DNA of 64,000 nucleotides from Patescibacteria group bacterium (GTDB taxonomy: Bacteria; Patescibacteriota; Patescibacteriia; Magasanikbacterales; GWA2-37-8). The notes beneath the pieces are model-generated. The model was not told the DNA's origin, did no database searches, and worked only from the letters and a program-made list of their open reading frames with translations. The DNA lies in assembly GCA_041649475.1 (NCBI GenBank), contig JBAZNA010000001.1, positions 197,022 through 261,021 of the forward strand, read 5' to 3'. The translations under genes were made by a program, and so were the position numbers. Positions 6,035 to 56,524 of this stretch are shown here, one piece after another. Position 1 is the stretch's first letter, and every line of letters starts with the position of its first letter.

Positions 6035-7066
6035 ATGCAATCTAAACTGCAGAAATTAAAAACCGAAGCCCTGCTGGCGATAAAATCCGCAAAAGATAAA
6101 TTGGAAGTTGAGGCCTTGGAACAGAAATTATTCGGCCGCAAGGGCGGAGAGATGACGGATATCTTGAAAGGCATAAAAGATTTGAGCGAAGATGCAAAAA
6201 AAGAAATCGGGCAATTGGCCAATGAAGTGAAAAAAGAAATTGAAAACGCGCTGGCCGCAAAAAAACAAGAGGTTTTGTCAAAAAGTTTTGCCGGCGCCTT
6301 GGAAAAAGAGCGAGTGGATTTAACCCAGCCGGCTTTGCCGCATCAAGAACGCGGGCATCTTCATCCGGTGTCAGTAATTCAAAATCAGTTGGAGGATTTA
6401 TTTGCGTCAATGGGTTTTATGGTTTTAGACGGTTCGGAATTGGAAAGCGATTATTATAATTTTTCAGCGGTAAATATTCCGGAAGATCATCCGGCGCGCG
6501 ACATGCAGGATACTTTTTATATTAAAAACCATCCGGATTGGGTGATGCGAACCCACACTTCTTCAATGCAGGTGCGGGGAATGCAAAAATACGGCGCGCC
6601 GCTTCGGGCGATTATTCCGGGCAAGTGTTACCGGAATGAAGCCACCGATGTCAGGCATGAACACACCTTTTATCAAATGGAGGGGTATGTTGTTGATAAA
6701 AATATCAACTTCGGGCACATGAAAGCGGTTTTGGAAACCGTGGCCAAAAATTTGTACGGCGCGGAAACCCAGGTTCGGCTGCGGCCGAAGTTTTATCCGT
6801 TTGTGGAGCCGGGCGTCAACGGCGAAGTGACTTGTTTTTTGTGTCATGGCAACGGTTGCCGGTTGTGTAAAAACAGCGGCTGGCTGGAGATTTTTGGCGC
6901 CGGTATGATTCACCCCAATGTTTTAAAAGAAGCCAATATTGATTCGAAAATTTATTCCGGTTTTGCTTTTGGCTTTGGTCTCACCCGTTTGGTGATGCTT
7001 AAATACGGCATTGAAGACATCCGCCTGCTCCAAAGCGGGGAGATGAAATTTTTAGAACAATTTTAA
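6035..7066 (+). CDS. pheS: phenylalanine--tRNA ligase alpha subunit
   Basis: 343 aa with class II aaRS motifs (HPARDMQDTFY, FRNE-like CYRNEATDVRHEHTFYQMEG, GFAFGFGLTRL). Confidence 0.95.
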   Translation: MQSKLQKLKTEALLAIKSAKDKLEVEALEQKLFGRKGGEMTDILKGIKDLSEDAKKEIGQLANEVKKEIENALAAKKQEVLSKSFAGALEKERVDLTQPALPHQERGHLHPVSVIQNQLEDLFASMGFMVLDGSELESDYYNFSAVNIPEDHPARDMQDTFYIKNHPDWVMRTHTSSMQVRGMQKYGAPLRAIIPGKCYRNEATDVRHEHTFYQMEGYVVDKNINFGHMKAVLETVAKNLYGAETQVRLRPKFYPFVEPGVNGEVTCFLCHGNGCRLCKNSGWLEIFGAGMIHPNVLKEANIDSKIYSGFAFGFGLTRLVMLKYGIEDIRLLQSGEMKFLEQF

Positions 7067-7084
7067 CTTTCTTTCACACAGAAT

Positions 7085-9532
7085 ATGCTTATCTCTTTTA
7101 ACTGGTTAAAAAAATACGTCAAGTTACCTGATTCGGTTAGTGCCGAGGATGTAGCTGAAAAATTAAAGCAAAGCACGGTGGAAATTGAAAAAGTGGCCAG
7201 TCGCGCCAAGGATTTGGAAAATATTGTAGTTGGAAAAGTTGTGTCTTGCGATAAACATCCGAATGCCGATAAATTACAGGTTTGCAAAGTCAGCGTCGGC
7301 AATGAAGAAGTGGAAGTTGTTTGCGGAGGCAGTAATGTGAAAGAAGGAATGCTGGTGGCGCTGGCAAAAGTTGGCGCCAAAGTGCGCTGGCATGGAGCCG
7401 GGGAGTTGGTTGAGCTTGCGCCAACAGAGATTCGCGGCGTGAAATCATTCGGGATGATTTGCGCGTCAACTGAAATCGGTCTGGCTGACATGTTTCCTTT
7501 AAAAAGCGAAAAAGAAATTTTGGATTTGAGCGGCGTGAAAGCAAAGCCGGGCGCGCCTTTAAACAAAGCGTTGGGTTTGGATGATGCGGTTTTAGAAATT
7601 GATAATAAATCTTTGAGCAACCGGCCCGATCTGTGGGGGCATTACGGCCTGGCGCGTGAAGTGGCCGCGTTATATAAAAAGGATTTAAAAGCATACGAGG
7701 TCAAGAAAATAAAATCGGGCAAGGGCCTGAAAGTGAAAGTAGAAATTGAAGATAAAAAGTTGTGTCCGCGGTATATGGCCGTGGCCGTCTCGGGAATTAA
7801 GGTGAAAGAGTCCCCGGAGTGGCTAAAGAAAAGTTTGTTAGCAGTGGGCCTGCGACCAATAAACAACATCGTTGATATCACCAATTATGTGATGATGGAT
7901 TTGGGTCAGCCCATGCATGCGTTTGATGCCAAGGTTTTATCTGGCGATAAGAAACAGGCCGCGATTGTGGTGCGGCGTGCGAAAGACGGCGAAGAATTCG
8001 TTACTTTGGATGAACAGAAAAGAAAATTGGATTCGTCAATGCTTATGATTGCCAATCCGGAAAAATCGTTGGCCATTGCCGGCGTAATGGGCGGGATGGA
8101 AAGCGGAATTAATGCCGGTACTGATACTATAATTTTTGAATCCGCCAATTTTGATGCTTCATCAATAAGAAAAACGTCTACTAAATTGGGTTTGCGCACT
8201 GATTCATCGGCTCGTTTTGAAAAAAGTTTGGATCCGAATTTGTGCGTGTCGGCTTTAAGCAAAGCCGTCCAATTGGCGCTGGAATTAAATCCCGGCGCCG
8301 GTGTAGGCGGTAATATTGCCGATGAAGCAAATTTTCATCTTAGCACGGGTCCAATAGGATTTGGCCTGGAATATTTGAAGAAAATTGCCGGAGTGGAAAT
8401 TTCCAAAAAAGAAGCGGTAAGCATTTTAGAACGATTGGGTTTTGCGGTCACCGGTAAAGGCGATGAAATGAAAGTAAAAATTCCCAGCTGGCGCGCCACC
8501 AAAGACATCTCTCTTCCCGAGGACTTGGTTGAAGAAATTGTGCGTATTTATGGCTATGAAAATATATTGTCTGCGATGCCGACGTTTCCGATAAACCCGC
8601 CGGAAGAAAACAAAGTGCGTAAACTGGAAAGACAAATTAGGGATTTGCTGGTAAAAGAAATGTCATATACGGATATGTATAATTATTCTTTTGTCAGTCC
8701 GCAGATGATTGCCAAAATGAATGATGATGTTAAAAAATATATTGAACTTGATAATCCAATTTCGCAGGAACGGCCGTATGTGCGCCGGCATTTAATCACT
8801 AACCTGTTGGAAAATATTTTAAAAAATATTGATAATCATCCCACTTTGCGTTTATTTGAAATCGGTAAAACCTTTATAAGTGAAAAGCCGGGGCAAAGAA
8901 CAATGGCCAACAATGACGATCTGCTTCCGCGCCAGGACACCTGGCTGACAAGTGTGTTTGTGGAAAAGAAAAATGCGGCGCCGTTTTGGCAGGCACGCCG
9001 GGTAGTGGAAAATATTCTGGGCGATTTGGGGCAAAATTTTGAAGTGAAGGTGCCGAAAGAAATTTATCCGTGGCAGCATAAAGCGCGCGTGGCCAGAGTA
9101 ATGGTTGCCGGAGAAGATGTGGGTTCGGTTTATGAACTTAATCCGGCCGCGGGAGCCAACTTAGGTTTAGAGTGGAGCGTGGGCGTGGCGGCGTTAAACA
9201 TTGATAAGCTGGCAATGCTGCCTGTGTCTGACAAAAAATATAAACCACTGTCAGAATATCCGGCCATAGAACGGGATTTGGCGATTTTGGTGAAAAAAGA
9301 AGTTTCACACGGTGAAATTATTTCAGCCCTGGCGCACACTGATCCGATTTTAGCATCTGTGGATCTGTTTGACGTCTATGAAGGAGAGAACATCGGCGCC
9401 GGTTACAAAAGCATGGCTTATCATTTTGTCTATCGCGACCTTAAGCGAACCCTTACGGCCGGAGAGGTTGAAAAAGTGCACAGTAAAATTTTAAAAATTC
9501 TTCAGGAAAAATTTAAAGCGAGCGTGAGATAG
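7085..9532 (+). CDS. pheT: phenylalanine--tRNA ligase beta subunit
   Basis: 815 aa, directly after pheS. It has the N-terminal tRNA-binding OB domain (HPNADKLQVCKV), B3/4 and B5 regions, and a FDX-ACB C-terminus. Confidence 0.95.
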   Translation: MLISFNWLKKYVKLPDSVSAEDVAEKLKQSTVEIEKVASRAKDLENIVVGKVVSCDKHPNADKLQVCKVSVGNEEVEVVCGGSNVKEGMLVALAKVGAKVRWHGAGELVELAPTEIRGVKSFGMICASTEIGLADMFPLKSEKEILDLSGVKAKPGAPLNKALGLDDAVLEIDNKSLSNRPDLWGHYGLAREVAALYKKDLKAYEVKKIKSGKGLKVKVEIEDKKLCPRYMAVAVSGIKVKESPEWLKKSLLAVGLRPINNIVDITNYVMMDLGQPMHAFDAKVLSGDKKQAAIVVRRAKDGEEFVTLDEQKRKLDSSMLMIANPEKSLAIAGVMGGMESGINAGTDTIIFESANFDASSIRKTSTKLGLRTDSSARFEKSLDPNLCVSALSKAVQLALELNPGAGVGGNIADEANFHLSTGPIGFGLEYLKKIAGVEISKKEAVSILERLGFAVTGKGDEMKVKIPSWRATKDISLPEDLVEEIVRIYGYENILSAMPTFPINPPEENKVRKLERQIRDLLVKEMSYTDMYNYSFVSPQMIAKMNDDVKKYIELDNPISQERPYVRRHLITNLLENILKNIDNHPTLRLFEIGKTFISEKPGQRTMANNDDLLPRQDTWLTSVFVEKKNAAPFWQARRVVENILGDLGQNFEVKVPKEIYPWQHKARVARVMVAGEDVGSVYELNPAAGANLGLEWSVGVAALNIDKLAMLPVSDKKYKPLSEYPAIERDLAILVKKEVSHGEIISALAHTDPILASVDLFDVYEGENIGAGYKSMAYHFVYRDLKRTLTAGEVEKVHSKILKILQEKFKASVR

Positions 9533-10149: not shown

Positions 10150-10497
10150 ATGGGAATGCGCGCGAAGGACTGGGAGGCGGCCCAGGCCGTTTTCTTGAAA
10201 GAGGCCGGTGCCGACCCTGACCCCGACGATTCGTGGACCGTAGTTCGGTCGCCGAGTTTGCAGGAGCTTCTGCTGGCAAAGGAGCAGGAGTTCCCGGTTG
10301 AGCTCGAGCTCTCCGACGGCCGCAAGATGACCGTGTTCGTCGAGGATATCAAGGACCCCGACGCGCACGGCGAAGTGGAGGTGTACGTAATGTACGTCGC
10401 CAACGGCAACCGGCGCCGGCGGTACCTGCACTTCACCCCCGACGTCTACGAGCCCAGGGTCAACGTCTACCCCGAGCCCAAGGAATCCGTGGGCTGA
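10150..10497 (+). CDS. GC-rich orphan protein 1 (115 aa, acidic, no recognised domain)
   Basis: AGGAG lies 7 nt before the ATG. Hand count gives 38/60 G+C in the first 60 nt. Third codon positions in this frame are overwhelmingly G/C. The gene has its own promoter and terminator. Confidence 0.65.
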   Translation: MGMRAKDWEAAQAVFLKEAGADPDPDDSWTVVRSPSLQELLLAKEQEFPVELELSDGRKMTVFVEDIKDPDAHGEVEVYVMYVANGNRRRRYLHFTPDVYEPRVNVYPEPKESVG

Positions 10498-10520
10498 CCC
10501 CACTTCCTCCCTCGTCTCAC

Positions 10521-18073: not shown

Positions 18074-18400
18074 TCACAGGACCACTTCTTCGTAGTAGTC
18101 GGCCCGCTCGTGGCTAGCGTAGGGGCTTGATTTGGCATCCTTGAGCGCAGCTGCGGCGAACGGTTCGTCTATGGTGACCTCGGCAACGTTCTCGCACTTG
18201 GCGATCAACAGCTGACAACCATCACAGCCGAATCCGGTCACGGTTGCCAGAACCAGCGCCTCCTTGATCTTCGGTACCCGGCCCTCTTTGCGGATGGCTT
18301 CGGCCACATCGGCCGCGTTTTCTCCACCGCAGTCGGTCCAGAACTTGAAAACAACCTCATCACCCTTGCGCACACTAACGAGTCCGGTTTTTCCGTGCAT
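18074..18400 (-). CDS. GC-rich orphan protein 3 (108 aa; contains a CDGC CxxC motif)
   Basis: AAGGAGG lies 6 nt before the ATG, and the SD starts on the stop codon of the upstream low-GC oxidase gene (cctAAGGAGGggtgatATG). G+C rises abruptly at this junction. Confidence 0.6.
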   Translation of the reverse strand: MHGKTGLVSVRKGDEVVFKFWTDCGGENAADVAEAIRKEGRVPKIKEALVLATVTGFGCDGCQLLIAKCENVAEVTIDEPFAAAALKDAKSSPYASHERADYYEEVVL

Positions 18401-25928: not shown

Positions 25929-26282
25929 TTAGGTGTCAACCGTCTCCACCGGAGGGTTGGGCACTGTTGGCCCCCAGAGAGGGACGAATTCCGTGCTCTG
26001 GAAGTTCTTGCGACACAACTCTTCAAGACCAGGGGTATCGCCATCGTAGATGACCCGGGAGGCCGTAATCACGGCCCGATCCTGCTTGGACCCGAACCCC
26101 ATCTGGGCGGCCAAGTTGTAGGCGTTCCTAGCCGAAGGGGCTTCACCGTTTTTTTGCACTTCCGCGCGAATTGCGTCAGCAAAACGCTTGGTGAGATTGC
26201 CGCCGCGGCCAACCACAACTTTCATCAAAACCACGTCGCCTCGGAAAACGATGACCATTCCCGGAACAGCAGTCGTGGACAT
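25929..26282 (-). CDS. GC-rich orphan protein 4 (117 aa; N-terminal block similar to orphan 3)
   Basis: AAGGAGG lies 7 nt before the ATG. The gene has its own promoter and terminator. It shares 13 of 33 ungapped identities with the 18074..18400 product. Confidence 0.65.
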   Translation of the reverse strand: MSTTAVPGMVIVFRGDVVLMKVVVGRGGNLTKRFADAIRAEVQKNGEAPSARNAYNLAAQMGFGSKQDRAVITASRVIYDGDTPGLEELCRKNFQSTEFVPLWGPTVPNPPVETVDT

Positions 26283-29504: not shown

Positions 29505-29580
29505 AGTGGGGGTTGGCTCCGGTGTGATCGCCTGATGGCGAATTGGAGCACGGTAGGAAAGAGCAGGGCGGGGCGGCTGG

Positions 29581-29922
29581 CTAGCCGGCGGCGGAAGCGG
29601 CGATGGGGGCGATCTTGGGCTGGATGTCGATCACGGGGATCGGCTCGGGCAGACCGTCGAAGCGCTGGCGGAGCCAGTCGATCTCGGGCTCCGAGGCCTC
29701 GCCCATGAAGATCTCGATGTAGAACGTCCCCCTGATGAGGCCCTCGTACTTCAGCTTGAAGCCGGGGATCTCGTCGTCGAAGTCGGCCTTGTGCGGCCTG
29801 TTGACGTACCTGTTGAAGTCGTTGAGCGAGCAGTACCTGACGCTGCCGTCCACGAACTGGATCCGTACGGCCCTTGTCTGCAAGGTCGTGTCCGGGAACG
29901 TCATCAGCTTCTGGATCGGCAT
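29581..29922 (-). CDS. GC-rich orphan protein 5 (113 aa, no recognised domain)
   Basis: AAGGAG lies 6 nt before the ATG at 29922 (MPIQKLMTFPD...). The longer track ORF start has no SD. Confidence 0.6.
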   Translation of the reverse strand: MPIQKLMTFPDTTLQTRAVRIQFVDGSVRYCSLNDFNRYVNRPHKADFDDEIPGFKLKYEGLIRGTFYIEIFMGEASEPEIDWLRQRFDGLPEPIPVIDIQPKIAPIAASAAG

Positions 29923-30037
29923 CTCCCTCTCCTTGGGACTACGAGCTCGTGTGACCATCTTGTTATGCCTCCCTTGTTTCCGTGTTGGGCCCAATGCCCC
30001 TAAACTTGTTGGCCTTGTCCAGGCCGTGATGGGCTAA

Positions 30038-41815: not shown

Positions 41816-41839
41816 GCACCCATTACCGGGTGTTTTTTT
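41816..41839 (+). terminator. intrinsic terminator after thrS
   Basis: gcaccc-attacc-gggtgt followed by ttttttt. Confidence 0.65.
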
Positions 41840-41855
41840 ATCCCCAGGTTTACCC

Positions 41856-41884
41856 TTGACCAATTGTCTTTTTTATGCTAAAGT
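41856..41884 (+). promoter_or_regulatory. promoter of GC-rich gene 6 (TTGACC-N17-TAAAGT)
   Basis: ttgacc aattgtcttttttatgc taaagt. The 5' UTR contains the hairpin cctgcc-agagaaa-ggcagg. Confidence 0.55.
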
Positions 41885-41931
41885 ATGTGGTTCCTGCCAG
41901 AGAAAGGCAGGTCAGAAAGGAGGCCTCTCGG

Positions 41932-42312
41932 ATGACACGGGTCATGAGTTTGATGGCTTTCTACGCGACTTATCGTCTCTTAAAGGTCGCGTACCGTGCG
42001 ACCGAGAGACAGCTTAGGCTATTCTTCGTCCCCAAGCCGGGGTGCGAGGGGGCCTACGAGGTGGATGAGCAAATCTTCGCCAAGGTTCGGACGCTCATCG
42101 TCAATTCCAGGTCGTTTCAGACCGAAATCTACCCGCTGAACGCCAGTGACGTGGGGGAAGATTTCCGCCTTGGCGACCAGGATTTCACCGGCTCGGTGAT
42201 GGTCTGGCTGAAGGAAGTAGATCCTTTAGACGCACTGTTTACCGACAGAATCAAGGAGGTTGTGTTCGGAGAGGAGAAAGAGTATCGCTTTCAGTGCGGT
42301 TCCCGCAACTAG
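41932..42312 (+). CDS. GC-rich orphan protein 6 (126 aa, no recognised domain)
   Basis: AAGGAGG lies 8 nt before the ATG at 41932 (MTRVMSLMAFY...). The earlier track start lies inside the promoter. Confidence 0.6.
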   Translation: MTRVMSLMAFYATYRLLKVAYRATERQLRLFFVPKPGCEGAYEVDEQIFAKVRTLIVNSRSFQTEIYPLNASDVGEDFRLGDQDFTGSVMVWLKEVDPLDALFTDRIKEVVFGEEKEYRFQCGSRN

Positions 42313-42406
42313 CATCTGGGCGCTCATCTTCACTCCTCTCCGGGCGCCTTTACTACTTGGACTCGGATTGGTATAATATATTTACTAAAATTTAATTTTA
42401 TATCAT

Positions 42407-42973
42407 ATGTTAAGCGAAGCATCAGCAAGAGCGGCAAAAGCCAGACAATTTCGCGCTAAAAATGCTGAAGTAACCGTACCTCATAGAGAGGCCGCCAGAA
42501 AACTTAAAGCCCAGATGAAGGAAGAAAAACAGGCAACAGCAAGAAATATGGTTCGTGAGGAAATTGAAACTTTGGCTGACAAATTGGAGGCGGAAGGAGA
42601 TAAAGCAATAAATGGAGTTTTAGGCACCATAATTGAAAATGGCGATGTTGATGATTTGGATGTTTTAAAAATGTTAGACGGTTTCTGTTATCTGAAAAGA
42701 ACAGAATTAGAACATGACAAAGTTGATAGAAGTATTTTGATGAGAGATGATACCTTGAGGGCGCAGGTGAAAAAAGCTTTAGAAAATTATAGCACCGGTG
42801 TTAAAAACCAAAAGAAAATTTTTGACGCCAGTGCGGGATTTGAAACCGGAAAGGAATACGCGCTTAAAGAAGGTGAAGACGCCATCAATGAACTTATGAG
42901 CCGGGCCCGTCAAAATATTGACGGTTTGATAACCGACAGAATCAACGAGATGGCTAACGAAGGAAAAAATTAA
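42407..42973 (+). CDS. hypothetical helical protein
   Basis: 188 aa, charged and helical. The extended -10 TGgTATAAT is at 42369..42377. The stop overlaps the miaB start (TAATG). Confidence 0.5.
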   Translation: MLSEASARAAKARQFRAKNAEVTVPHREAARKLKAQMKEEKQATARNMVREEIETLADKLEAEGDKAINGVLGTIIENGDVDDLDVLKMLDGFCYLKRTELEHDKVDRSILMRDDTLRAQVKKALENYSTGVKNQKKIFDASAGFETGKEYALKEGEDAINELMSRARQNIDGLITDRINEMANEGKN

Positions 42974-44259
42974 TGTCCGGTTTTTATCACATCACAACCT
43001 TCGGCTGTCAGATGAATAAAAATGACTCCGAGCGTCTTTCGGCTCTGTTAAATTCCCTTGGTTTACAAAACACAATTCGGCCGGAACAGGCCGATTTGTT
43101 GTTTATAAATACCTGCAGTGTCCGCCAGCATGCGGAAGACAGGGTGTTTGGCTTGGTGAGGGAATGGCAAAAATTACGGTCGGCCAAACCGAATTTGATT
43201 ATCGGCGTTACCGGCTGTATGCCGGGCAGAGACAAGGACGGAAAGCTGAAAGAAAAAATTCCGGGAGCGGATTTATTTTTTGGCATTGAAGAAATGGTGA
43301 TGTTGCCGAAATGGATCAGGGGATTAAATCCGGATTTGATTGCGCCAGCCAAGGGTTTAAGCGACTATCTTTTGATTAATCCGGTGAGAGAAAATAAAGC
43401 CAAGGCGTTTATTACGATTGCTACCGGCTGTAATAATTTTTGTACCTATTGCGTAGTGCCTTATGCGCGTGGCCGGGAAAAGAACAGGCCGGCTAAAGAT
43501 ATTTTAAATGAGATTAAGACCGCGGCTGTGGATGGCTGTAAAGAGGTAACTCTGCTGGGTCAGACCGTAAATAATTATAAAGATGGAGATTATGACTTTG
43601 TTGATTTGCTGGAGGATGTGAATAAAATTAGCGGGATTGAACGAATAAATTGGACGGCTCCGGATCCGCAGTATTTTAACGATCGTCAGATTGAGGCCTT
43701 AAAATTGCCCAAGCAAATGAATTATTTGCATTTACCAGCGCAAAGCGGGGATAATGAGATTTTAAGAAAAATGAATCGCAAATATACGCGTGAAGATTAT
43801 ATTAATTTGGTGAAAAAAATTCGCGCCGCTCGGCCGGAAATCGCTTTGGGCACTGATTTGATCGTTGGCTTTTGCGGAGAAACCGAAGAACAATTCCAAA
43901 ACACTTTGGATTTATATAAACAATGCGATTTTGATATTTCCTATCACGCCATGTATAGTTCAAGAAGCGGAACAGCCGCGGCCAAGGCGTTTAAAGATGA
44001 TGTGCTCCAGGAAGAAAAAAAGCGCCGTTGGCGCGCGGTTCAGGATTTGATGGAAGAAATTGTTTATCGGAAAAATCAAAAATATTTAAATCAGACAGTT
44101 TCGGTTTTGGTTGATTCGTGCGAAGAGGGGGTATGTAGCGGAAATTCCAGCGAGATGAAACTGGTTCAGTTTCCGGGCAATGAAGATTTAATTGGCCAGA
44201 TTATTGATGTTAAAATCACCAGGCCGGAGATGTGGGTGTTGAGAGGAGTGCTAGTTTAA
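42973..44259 (+). CDS. miaB: tRNA (i6A37) methylthiotransferase, radical SAM
   Basis: UPF0004 N-domain Cys residues, the radical-SAM motif CNNFCTYCVVP and a TRAM C-terminus. Confidence 0.9.
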   Translation: MSGFYHITTFGCQMNKNDSERLSALLNSLGLQNTIRPEQADLLFINTCSVRQHAEDRVFGLVREWQKLRSAKPNLIIGVTGCMPGRDKDGKLKEKIPGADLFFGIEEMVMLPKWIRGLNPDLIAPAKGLSDYLLINPVRENKAKAFITIATGCNNFCTYCVVPYARGREKNRPAKDILNEIKTAAVDGCKEVTLLGQTVNNYKDGDYDFVDLLEDVNKISGIERINWTAPDPQYFNDRQIEALKLPKQMNYLHLPAQSGDNEILRKMNRKYTREDYINLVKKIRAARPEIALGTDLIVGFCGETEEQFQNTLDLYKQCDFDISYHAMYSSRSGTAAAKAFKDDVLQEEKKRRWRAVQDLMEEIVYRKNQKYLNQTVSVLVDSCEEGVCSGNSSEMKLVQFPGNEDLIGQIIDVKITRPEMWVLRGVLV

Positions 44260-44286: not shown

Positions 44287-45174
44287 CTAAAGTTTGATAC
44301 TTTTGAGAGATATTTTTAAATATAAATTTGAAGTCTTGTTTATTAAGAATTTTAATGTTTTGGGCAATACCCTGTCTAATAATGCAAGAAACGAGATAGT
44401 ATATATTAAGGTTAAAAAATTATTTTTAAGTATCGTGATTATAAAATTTGGTTTATAATCCATCTTCCAGAATATTATATAAAGAATAAAATGTAATATG
44501 CAGAAGAATGCTATTGGCCAGAATGGAGCTTTAAAACCAAGTAGATCCCATTTTTCTGGCTCACCGAATTGGTTATTACTTTCGGGCGAGTTATAAATTT
44601 TATCATTCTTCATAATCCTTGACCAAATATCAGTGAATTTGGTTCCAGATATTATAAGTAGTAACCATTGAAAGCAGTCAGATATAAATTTTATAATATC
44701 GGTTATAATTACCCTCCAAAATAATAATTTTAACCTAAGTTTAAAACCCTTTAGTGGCATGGTTGGTTTTGTATGAAGCAAGTATAGCTCGTCGAGTAAC
44801 ATATTTGCTGTTATTTCTTTATTTTTTTTATAAAATTTGTTCAAGATAACATCATAAAAATACTCATCATTTGAAGTAAAATCTATCGGGCCAGTAACTT
44901 TTTTTATTTTATCTTGGTTACTCAATGATATGTAAGATCCTTTGTCATCTTCTTTAAGTTTTCCATAGCTAACCCTTATGGATAGGGGTTTAATGTTGCC
45001 ATCCTTCAGTACATTTTCATTACTGATGTAAATATAGAATATTGATCCCCAATCGTCTGAACCCATTTTTCTAATTATACTAAAGCCAAATTTGCAATCT
45101 TTTAAAGGAGTGAGATTCAAAAATAATCCATTAGTTCCTATATTAAAATCTTTTATGAAATCTTGATTTTCCAT
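44287..45174 (-). CDS. very AT-rich orphan membrane protein (295 aa)
   Basis: Hand count gives 12/60 G+C in the first 60 nt. It has a soluble N-terminal half and then 3-4 predicted TM helices. No motif recognised. Confidence 0.55.
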   Translation of the reverse strand: MENQDFIKDFNIGTNGLFLNLTPLKDCKFGFSIIRKMGSDDWGSIFYIYISNENVLKDGNIKPLSIRVSYGKLKEDDKGSYISLSNQDKIKKVTGPIDFTSNDEYFYDVILNKFYKKNKEITANMLLDELYLLHTKPTMPLKGFKLRLKLLFWRVIITDIIKFISDCFQWLLLIISGTKFTDIWSRIMKNDKIYNSPESNNQFGEPEKWDLLGFKAPFWPIAFFCILHFILYIIFWKMDYKPNFIITILKNNFLTLIYTISFLALLDRVLPKTLKFLINKTSNLYLKISLKSIKL

Positions 45175-55838: not shown

Positions 55839-56504
55839 ATGGCGACCGCAAAACAGATTCCGTTTTTGATGGGAAGGTTGGTGGAGCATCAGTTTTACTT
55901 CTGTGCTTTGTCCACCGCAAGCGCCACGTGGGCGAGCCAAAACCCGAAAGACGCCATTGCCTTGTGCGTGGCGGCGATCGAGAATCGCCAAAAGGAGCGT
56001 CAGTCCGACCCGGCGCCTTCGCCACTCCTCACCTTGGTCGGTGCCGTCGTGATCTGGCTGGCCGTGAGGTTCGTTGCCAGTGAACACCTGGTGAAGAATA
56101 CCGAGAAGAACGCGCCGGTGAAGATTTCCTACATCTTCGATAAGGTCACCGTGTGGTTCCAGGGCAAGATCGAGGAGCGGGTCGAGGGCGAGATGGCTCT
56201 GTGCTGCCATACCCTGAACTCCGACTCGGACGATAACCTCATCATCAACCAGCTCGGCGGCGAGACCAAGGCCGAGACCGCCCTTGCCGAGGTCTTTGCC
56301 TGCTTGGAGAAGCAACCCAACGGCGAGGATGGTGCGCTACTCACTAACGGCCACGCGAACATCTTCTATGTTCGCAACACCGAAGGTGTGTTGTGCGTGA
56401 TCCAAGTGATCTGGCGCGGTGACGGTTGGACCTTCTACACCCGTTCGGTCGGTTCTCTGGACACATGTACCGAGGGCCGCCGGGTGTTCTCCCGCGCCGC
56501 ATAG
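55839..56504 (+). CDS. GC-rich orphan protein 7 (221 aa; one hydrophobic segment LLTLVGAVVIWLAVRFVA)
   Basis: AAGGAG lies 7 nt before the ATG. A strong terminator follows the gene. No recognisable domain. Confidence 0.6.
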   Translation: MATAKQIPFLMGRLVEHQFYFCALSTASATWASQNPKDAIALCVAAIENRQKERQSDPAPSPLLTLVGAVVIWLAVRFVASEHLVKNTEKNAPVKISYIFDKVTVWFQGKIEERVEGEMALCCHTLNSDSDDNLIINQLGGETKAETALAEVFACLEKQPNGEDGALLTNGHANIFYVRNTEGVLCVIQVIWRGDGWTFYTRSVGSLDTCTEGRRVFSRAA

Positions 56505-56524
56505 TTTGTTCCTTCCTTCCAAGC

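Follow-up and report, generated by a model that had tools for sequence, protein, structure and literature searches.

Phage morons, a concept that goes back to the work of Juhala and Hendrix, are autonomous single-gene units found in lambdoid prophages. As a rule, ORFans and genes of recent foreign origin are richer in AT than the host genome, whose composition they gradually approach. Stem-loops at the 5' terminus act as stabilisers of mRNA, as in the 5' untranslated region (UTR) of Escherichia coli ompA and in the leaders of Bacillus subtilis aprE and ermC. Here we analyse a small GC-rich gene that invites comparison with each of these systems. It lies in a stretch of 64,000 nucleotides (nt), referred to below as the window, from a Patescibacteria group bacterium (contig JBAZNA010000001.1, positions 197,022 to 261,021 of the forward strand), encodes 126 amino acids (aa) and is placed between thrS and a hypothetical gene that is followed by miaB. 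The original prediction, made from the letters of the window, had presented it as one of several GC-rich cassettes. With good confidence, the sequence comparisons below point to an ordinary lineage-restricted, monocistronic protein-coding gene, vertically inherited in the thrS-miaB interval of a Magasanikbacteria-related Patescibacteria (Candidate Phyla Radiation, CPR) genome. The source is a metagenome-assembled genome (MAG) with AT-leaning composition; GC content of the window is 43.5%, and RNase P RNA and three tRNAs are present. Among GTDB representatives, the closest one found is a MAG of Candidatus Magasanikbacteria (locus L009, JACRPD010000023.1), the thrS of which is 74% identical.

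The open reading frame (ORF) spans 41932..42312 on the forward strand and ends with TAG (42310-12). Its GC content is 0.54, its GC content at third codon positions (GC3) is 0.72, and its product begins with MTRVMSLMAFYATYR... Relatives of this protein were sought among approximately 5.8 billion proteins and, by exhaustive HMMER profile search, among 1.84 billion representatives. The former search found three proteins, namely the window's own and two variants with 79% and 74% identity, all of them 126 aa long. The latter added one further true relative, P0004 (120 aa, E = 1.6e-11), and a second profile search brought no others, the family total thus being four variants. Two borderline profile matches (E about 3e-4), surface proteins with MucBP repeats and Ig-like repeats, respectively, were discounted as long, repetitive proteins with summed weak beta-strand similarity. 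The loci of close variants are denoted L001 and L005, and the locus of the distant ortholog P0004 is denoted L008. Genes are arranged in the order thrS - 126-aa gene - hypothetical gene - miaB in all four lineages, including L008, whose thrS is 65% identical to that of the window. No matches were retrieved when GTDB genomes were queried with the 188-aa hypothetical protein. Three more distant loci (L009, L010 and L011) have no 126-aa gene downstream of thrS; their gene order differs anyway.

Comparison of the window gene with its L008 ortholog carries most of the evidence on coding status. The two share 36-41% of amino acids and 49% of nucleotides; synonymous divergence (dS) reaches 1.5-2.5, which means that synonymous sites are saturated, and nonsynonymous divergence (dN) is 0.65-0.75. 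The probability of an open frame arising by chance is 0.0036 for the window and 0.0065 for L008. The 126-aa ORF is in all likelihood a genuine protein-coding gene, the product of which is conserved at the amino-acid level across saturated synonymous divergence. Judged by the same comparisons, the gene appears to be old and vertically inherited, neither a recent insertion nor a non-coding RNA.

The original prediction had considered that a longer reading of 145 aa, starting from ATG 41875 within the promoter, might be the conserved form. This frame (forward strand) is open in the window too. The extension is thrown out of frame in L001 by a single nucleotide inserted between the two ATGs, and in L008 in-frame stops are found immediately upstream of the ortholog start. 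Gene calls in all relatives give 120-126 aa. The conserved form is that of the 126-aa start.

The gene evolves considerably faster than its surroundings, with dN/dS of 0.35-0.65 compared to 0.04-0.13 for thrS and the 188-aa neighbour. Its dS (0.22-0.29) ranges from equal to about half of that in flanking genes (0.22-0.74), and constraint on synonymous sites therefore fits these data. The contrast is also visible along the locus: between the window and L005, the thrS 3' end, intergenic region, promoter and UTR are 95-97% identical, whereas identity drops to 83% over codons 1-107 of the gene. Among close variants, the last approximately 100 nt of the unit are near-invariant, and C-terminal codons together with the 3' region are its most conserved part.

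Upstream of the ORF, a putative sigma-70-type promoter with extended -10 element is located at 41856..41884 (forward strand, as are the elements that follow). It comprises -35 hexamer TTGACC (41856-41861), a 17-nt spacer and -10 hexamer TAAAGT (41879-41884) preceded by TG (41876-77), and scores 9 in a consensus scan with maximum of 12. A 5'-proximal stem-loop follows at 41893..41911, formed by CCUGCC (41893-98), loop AGAGAAA and GGCAGG (41906-11), and after it the Shine-Dalgarno (SD) sequence AAGGAGG at 41917..41923, 8 nt ahead of the ATG at 41932. All these elements had been listed in the original prediction, along with a weak hairpin after the stop codon, and all were recovered in place; its description of a stand-alone unit consisting of promoter, 5' hairpin, SD, ORF and hairpin is correct. 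The elements recur in relatives. Of the 29 promoter positions, 26-28 are identical in L001 and L005, and L008 has TTGACG-17-(TGC)TTTAGT in the equivalent place. The 5' hairpin of L001 contains one compensatory change of a C-G pair to U-A, and L008 carries a sequence-unrelated hairpin (CCUUGCCCC...GGGGUGAGG) at the equivalent position. The SD sequence is conserved in L001 and reads GGAGA in L005 and AAGGGGG in L008.

The unit is preceded by a predicted intrinsic terminator of thrS (41816..41845, forward strand; AAAAAAGCACCC-AUUACC-GGGUGUUUUUUU) with folding energy of -16.2 kcal/mol and z = -3.52. This terminator, the hairpin of which is kept in L005, would isolate the 126-aa gene from thrS transcription. 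It is missing from L001 owing to a 33-nt gap (about 310-345 in L001, 41796-41850 in the window), and thrS transcripts may enter the 126-aa gene in this type of relative.

Further, we examined base composition. The GC3 of the 126-aa gene (0.72) lies outside the range of all 46 ordinary ORFs of the window (0.26-0.57), and the L008 ortholog is GC-rich as well (GC 0.545, GC3 0.67, as opposed to 0.35-0.45 in its neighbours). Every ortholog retains GC3 near 0.7, against values of about 0.35-0.5 in host genes. The enrichment is mainly due to doubled C at third codon positions. Expression-linked codon bias was rejected as a cause of high GC3, the respective values for the HU and thioredoxin genes being 0.37 and 0.51. 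Persistence of GC3 around 0.7 over saturated divergence argues that the composition is maintained and does not represent the fading trace of a recent transfer.

In close variants, the GC-rich message is also unusually structured. For the coding sequence (CDS), folding yields z of -3.1 in the window, -3.3 in L001, -3.8 in L005 and -2.0 in L008, and this excess holds against both dinucleotide and synonymous-codon shuffles. By comparison, z ranges from -1.6 to +0.1 in the other GC-rich cassettes of the window and from -0.2 to +1.4 in host genes. For the full transcript of the 126-aa gene, z reaches -4.4. In close variants the spacer and AUG are predicted to pair with codons 23-26, and in L008 the SD is predicted to pair with codons 7-8, which hints that translation initiation may be limited by mRNA structure. 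The search of Rfam gave no match at gathering score, the best E-value in the region being 0.39.

Six small ORFs are the only GC3 outliers (0.67-0.93) among 52 ORFs of the window: A (10150-10497, forward strand), B (18074-18400, reverse), C (25929-26282, reverse), D (29581-29958, reverse), F, which is the 126-aa gene (41932-42312, forward), and G (55839-56504, forward; 221 aa, annotated at NCBI as 'hypothetical protein WC526_01275'). In each of them, an SD, a -35 element close to consensus and, behind the ORF, a hairpin can be read from the sequence. B and C are paralogs with 38% identity over 58 residues (E = 1e-7); common paralogy of all cassettes was rejected, as only these two are related. 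Cassettes A-D are placed between housekeeping genes and have no Pfam match at gathering level and no NCBIfam match, with marginal PADLOC matches at E about 0.03. In B and C, a purine-rich SD-like sequence overlaps the stop codon or lies right after it (TAAGGAGGAAG; TGAAAGGA...AAAGGAGAAAAAGAG). In four cassettes, a CU-rich tract resembling anti-SD directly follows the stop (ACUUCCUCCCUC, CACUCCUCUCC, UUCCUUCCUUCC and CUCUUUCCUACC; positions 10498-10520, 42326-42341, 56505-56520 and, on the reverse strand, about 29560-29580); in the 126-aa gene, this tract pairs with the upstream GGAGAGGAG codons.

Cassette G can be assigned further. Its homologs adjoin a reverse transcriptase (RT) in four of four loci examined (L013-L016) and bAvd in three of these. 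In the two loci tested, mismatches between the C-terminal variable region (VR) and the template repeat (TR) fall on template adenines in 17 of 17 (L013) and 18 of 22 (L014) cases. By these sequence criteria, cassette G belongs to a CPR family of variable proteins of diversity-generating retroelements (DGRs). Neither RT, Avd nor template repeat was detected in the 64-kb window, and cassette G is therefore a remote or orphaned DGR target. The DGR target gene of L013, the genome of which has 38% GC, shows GC3 of 0.68 compared to about 0.3 in neighbouring genes.

The 3' end of the unit was analysed along with these cassettes. A weak terminator-like hairpin is found at 42318..42349 of the forward strand, where GGGCGCUC (42318-25) and GGGCGCCU (42342-49) enclose a 16-nt CU-rich loop and are followed by the tail UUACUACUU. 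The 8-bp stem includes G-U pairs, the hairpin folds with -15 kcal/mol (z = -2.56), and it was not called by the terminator scan. Its stem is conserved in L001 and L005. The positional homolog in L008 is a canonical terminator with 10-bp stem, 4-nt loop and T-run. The view that this gene has the weakest terminator of the cassette set holds true: only 4 U occur in the first 8 bases past the stem, and the others are stronger. Clean hairpins of cassettes A, D and G are directly followed by runs of 7 U, in cassette C an equal U-run can be read in the sequence behind the hairpin, with the fold extending the stem into it, and cassette B combines a good hairpin with a broken U-tail.

The hairpin has a competitor, a long stem predicted at 42255..42351 (forward strand) both by minimum free energy folding and by RNAalifold, in which the coding arm GGAGGUUGUGUUCGGAGAGGAGAAAGAG (42255-82) pairs with AUCUUCACUCCUCUCCGGGCGCCUUU (42326-51). 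In three close variants this stem shows only single-sided pair-preserving changes and one indel, with no compensatory changes, and it has no counterpart in L008. Immediately downstream, a second putative promoter (42349..42377, forward strand; TTTACT-17-TATAAT, TG-extended, 10/12 in the scan) overlaps the U-tail of the post-stop hairpin by its -35 element. This promoter and the adjoining UTR are conserved at 53/58 to 58/58 positions across relatives. They precede the 188-aa protein, which is predicted to be helical (42407..42973, forward strand). Its gene overlaps the miaB start by its end and follows the 126-aa gene in all four lineages; its dN/dS is 0.09-0.13 and its identity to the positional counterpart in L008 is 24.5%. 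Given the degenerate terminator, read-through into the hypothetical gene and miaB, as suggested in the original prediction, is plausible. Since the L008 ortholog possesses a canonical terminator, such read-through would not be a conserved property, and it would not be needed either, the downstream operon being provided with a better promoter of its own.

Two observations concern genes further downstream. MiaB proteins of the window (42973-44259) and L008 (7143-8444) are 85.5% identical, whereas ThrS, encoded two genes upstream, reaches only 65%; this gap is unexpectedly large for housekeeping neighbours, and the miaB segment may have been recombined or transferred. Between miaB and miaA, a 295-aa ORF on the reverse strand (44287-45174; GC 0.28, GC3 0.28) is a compositional outlier in the opposite direction. 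The C-terminal half of its product is hydrophobic, and no Pfam match is on record for it in the identical locus L006.

Taken together, these data are best accommodated by an ordinary vertically inherited gene, for which the following course of events can be proposed. The 5' hairpin would protect the transcript 5' end against decay in the manner of ompA-type stabilisers. The GC-rich, structured mRNA would be kept by selection on synonymous sites and would not be a residue of recent transfer. The ancestral terminator would have degenerated in this sub-lineage: its loop of 4 nt would have grown to 16 nt, and the U-run would have been interrupted. Because of this degeneration, some transcripts probably run on into the hypothetical gene and miaB and supplement the operon's own promoter.

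Several points weigh against this interpretation. Substitutions between close variants are distributed near-evenly over codon positions (17/11/21 and 17/21/17), and survival of an open frame among the three close variants is not improbable (P about 0.32-0.38). The coding verdict therefore leans mainly on a single distant ortholog. The consensus CDS structure of close variants is not retained in L008, in which 50 of its 112 pairs can form compared to 42-55 in slid controls. Promoter-like sites occur in the scan at 2 per kb, with 1.0 +/- 1.0 in shuffled sequences, and folding of the 5' hairpin region is unremarkable (z = +0.13). Taken alone, the promoter and hairpin motifs are within chance expectation; promoter, hairpin and SD were accepted because they are conserved across relatives, not on account of motif scores.

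We also considered that the gene might be a recently acquired foreign cassette, moron-like or mobile, derived from a GC-rich donor and not yet drifted to host composition. Its composition is indeed strongly off that of its neighbours, promoter and hairpin make it an autonomous unit, five other GC-rich single-gene units are present in the window, and the gene is missing downstream of thrS in L009, L010 and L011. But a recent arrival would hardly occupy the same locus in four lineages, one of which has thrS at 65% identity and saturated synonymous sites with GC3 still at 0.67-0.72. Moreover, no homolog was found outside the four loci, either among the proteins searched or in GenBank phages and IMG/VR, and the gene is devoid of flanking repeats and of PHROG matches. 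This possibility is already largely refuted and we regard it as very unlikely. Accordingly, the term cassette suits the gene as an autonomous transcription unit, but there is no support for it as the name of a module that was inserted or is foreign: synteny and GC-richness extend over four lineages, one of them diverged to synonymous saturation, with no flanking repeats and no link to phages or mobile elements. Another explanation is that the locus specifies a structured non-coding or dual-function RNA, the ORF being incidental or secondary. In all three close variants, transcript and CDS fold better than shuffled sequences, with z between -3 and -4.4. This would suit such an RNA, as would dS lower than that of neighbours, five pairs with double-sided changes and the near-invariant end of the unit. 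An RNA as the main product is nevertheless improbable: Rfam contains no match, the fold is not preserved in L008 beyond control level, SD and ATG are conserved, and the protein similarity to L008 greatly exceeds the expectation from 49% nucleotide identity. Within the close clade, a dual RNA and protein role could conceivably exist.

The competing 3' structures suggest yet another scenario, in which the ORF serves as a translated leader tuning the hypothetical gene and miaB. Ribosomes on the last approximately 17 codons would melt the long 3' stem and let the terminator form, whereas in untranslated RNA the long stem would sequester the U-tail and permit read-through. The two structures, mutually exclusive or pseudoknotted, are consistently predicted in three variants; strong conservation of C-terminal codons and the 3' region, gene order fixed in four lineages and the -35 element abutting the hairpin would fit as well. 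On the other hand, amino-acid conservation of the 126-aa protein is atypical for a leader peptide, L008 has a plain canonical terminator and lacks the alternative fold, and absence of compensatory changes leaves the stem with no covariation support. The 17 codons carry one synonymous change where our estimate predicts about 3, a deficit that is not significant, and a near-consensus promoter of its own serves the downstream operon. Regulation of this kind is considered improbable, too. Finally, the gene might be a target or accessory gene of a DGR, like cassette G, the homologs of which are bona fide DGR variable proteins; the 126-aa gene is likewise GC-rich and fast-evolving. Yet nothing resembling a template repeat for any portion of the unit occurs in the window, RT and Avd are absent from the window as well as from about 3.5-6 kb around the L008 gene, and orthologs differ from one another throughout the protein, its C-terminus, which is the site of the variable region in DGR targets, being most conserved and invariant. 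Hence this last alternative is hardly credible.

Returning to the protein-coding gene as the favoured interpretation, we looked at properties of its product. The 126-aa protein (14.7 kDa, isoelectric point 5.25) has neither a hydrophobic or transmembrane segment nor a signal peptide, and is predicted to be soluble and acidic. No family of Pfam, PHROG, PADLOC or NCBIfam was matched at E <= 0.1, and the best match in a sequence search of PDB (E = 0.1) was not significant. Nor was any match found in GenBank phages (tblastn) or IMG/VR, and JGI metagenome contigs contained none of the peptide patterns and no exact copy of the 41-nt conserved DNA motif. The homology and structure searches that had been proposed for this protein have thus delivered orthologs and no match to a known family or solved structure. 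An AlphaFold2 model of mediocre quality, built from four sequences (predicted local distance difference test, pLDDT, 60; predicted template modelling score, pTM, 0.60) displays a helix at residues 7-13 followed by seven strands. Identity as a pilin was rejected, the N-terminal helix being charged. The model suggests one helix and a beta-rich body; tentatively, the protein would be a small cytoplasmic module that binds a partner. An accessory or interaction role, as opposed to a housekeeping one, might likewise be favoured because it fits the fast evolution, again with low confidence.

We wondered if the GC-rich units of the window have more in common than composition. They could form a class of their own, with six or more GC-rich orphan genes kept by active selection on nucleotide composition or mRNA structure and not explained by ordinary horizontal transfer; we consider this rather unlikely, albeit worth stating. 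GC-rich codon usage has been held over long divergence in two families, the 126-aa gene (four lineages) and the DGR-target family (genomes with 38% and 43% GC). A description of GC-rich orphan genes in CPR was not found in the literature. If such a class were real, it could serve to make mRNAs very long-lived or to gate their translation, or it could be tied to the symbiotic lifestyle. An additional GC-rich ORF was noticed in L009, where a gene for 160 aa (6905-7387, forward strand; GC 0.57, open on both strands) lies directly upstream of miaB and is separated from thrS by a 457-aa gene on the opposite strand. This ORF was rejected as a relative of the 126-aa gene (hhalign probability 0.1%). 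GC-rich orphan units near miaB may be recurring in this lineage.

In a narrow sense, the analysis adds one more uncharacterised family of small proteins from an uncultivated bacterium, and indicates that genuine genes, not compositional noise, underlie the noted cassettes. What makes the 126-aa gene noteworthy is its composition, which remains GC-richer than the host past synonymous saturation, together with an mRNA more structured than codon shuffles. If the other five GC-rich units are alike, GC3 outliers would be a cheap marker for a special set of fast-evolving CPR genes, and the question would arise of how selection on mRNA composition operates under minimal repertoires of ribosome components and RNases.

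How does this locus compare to known systems? The closest analogy is the phage moron, in that a single ORF, wedged between unrelated genes that differ from it in composition, is equipped with a sigma-70 promoter of its own and followed by a hairpin (weak in the window, canonical in L008). The analogy fails in prophage location and sporadic presence. The gene is flanked by thrS and by the hypothetical gene with miaB, phage matches are lacking and PHROG matches were obtained neither for the gene nor for its neighbour; it is present at one junction in all four lineages, and its GC-richness is maintained, not fading. The gene does not correspond to an integron cassette either, such cassettes being promoterless ORFs with an attC site, arrayed beside an integrase: it has its own promoter, and the GC-rich units are scattered over 46 kb among housekeeping genes and share no repeated or attC-like element. 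As regards the leader ORFs of attenuators, competing 3' folds are predicted here, but the ORF specifies a conserved 126-aa protein, the alternative fold is absent from L008 and covariation is lacking.

Individual features of the unit have parallels, too. Like the stabilisers of ompA, aprE and ermC, the short hairpin precedes a strong SD and is only a few nt away from where the transcript is predicted to begin, and it is conserved in structure and not in sequence. In its family of four members, short protein, elevated dN/dS and lack of Pfam, NCBIfam and PDB relatives, the gene resembles CPR ORFans; unlike typical ORFans, it is markedly and stably GC-richer than its host. With CPR DGR variable proteins it shares small size, GC-richness and a transcription unit of its own within an AT-leaning CPR genome, but it differs from them in its conserved C-terminus and in having no VR/TR pair, RT, Avd or sequence similarity to them.

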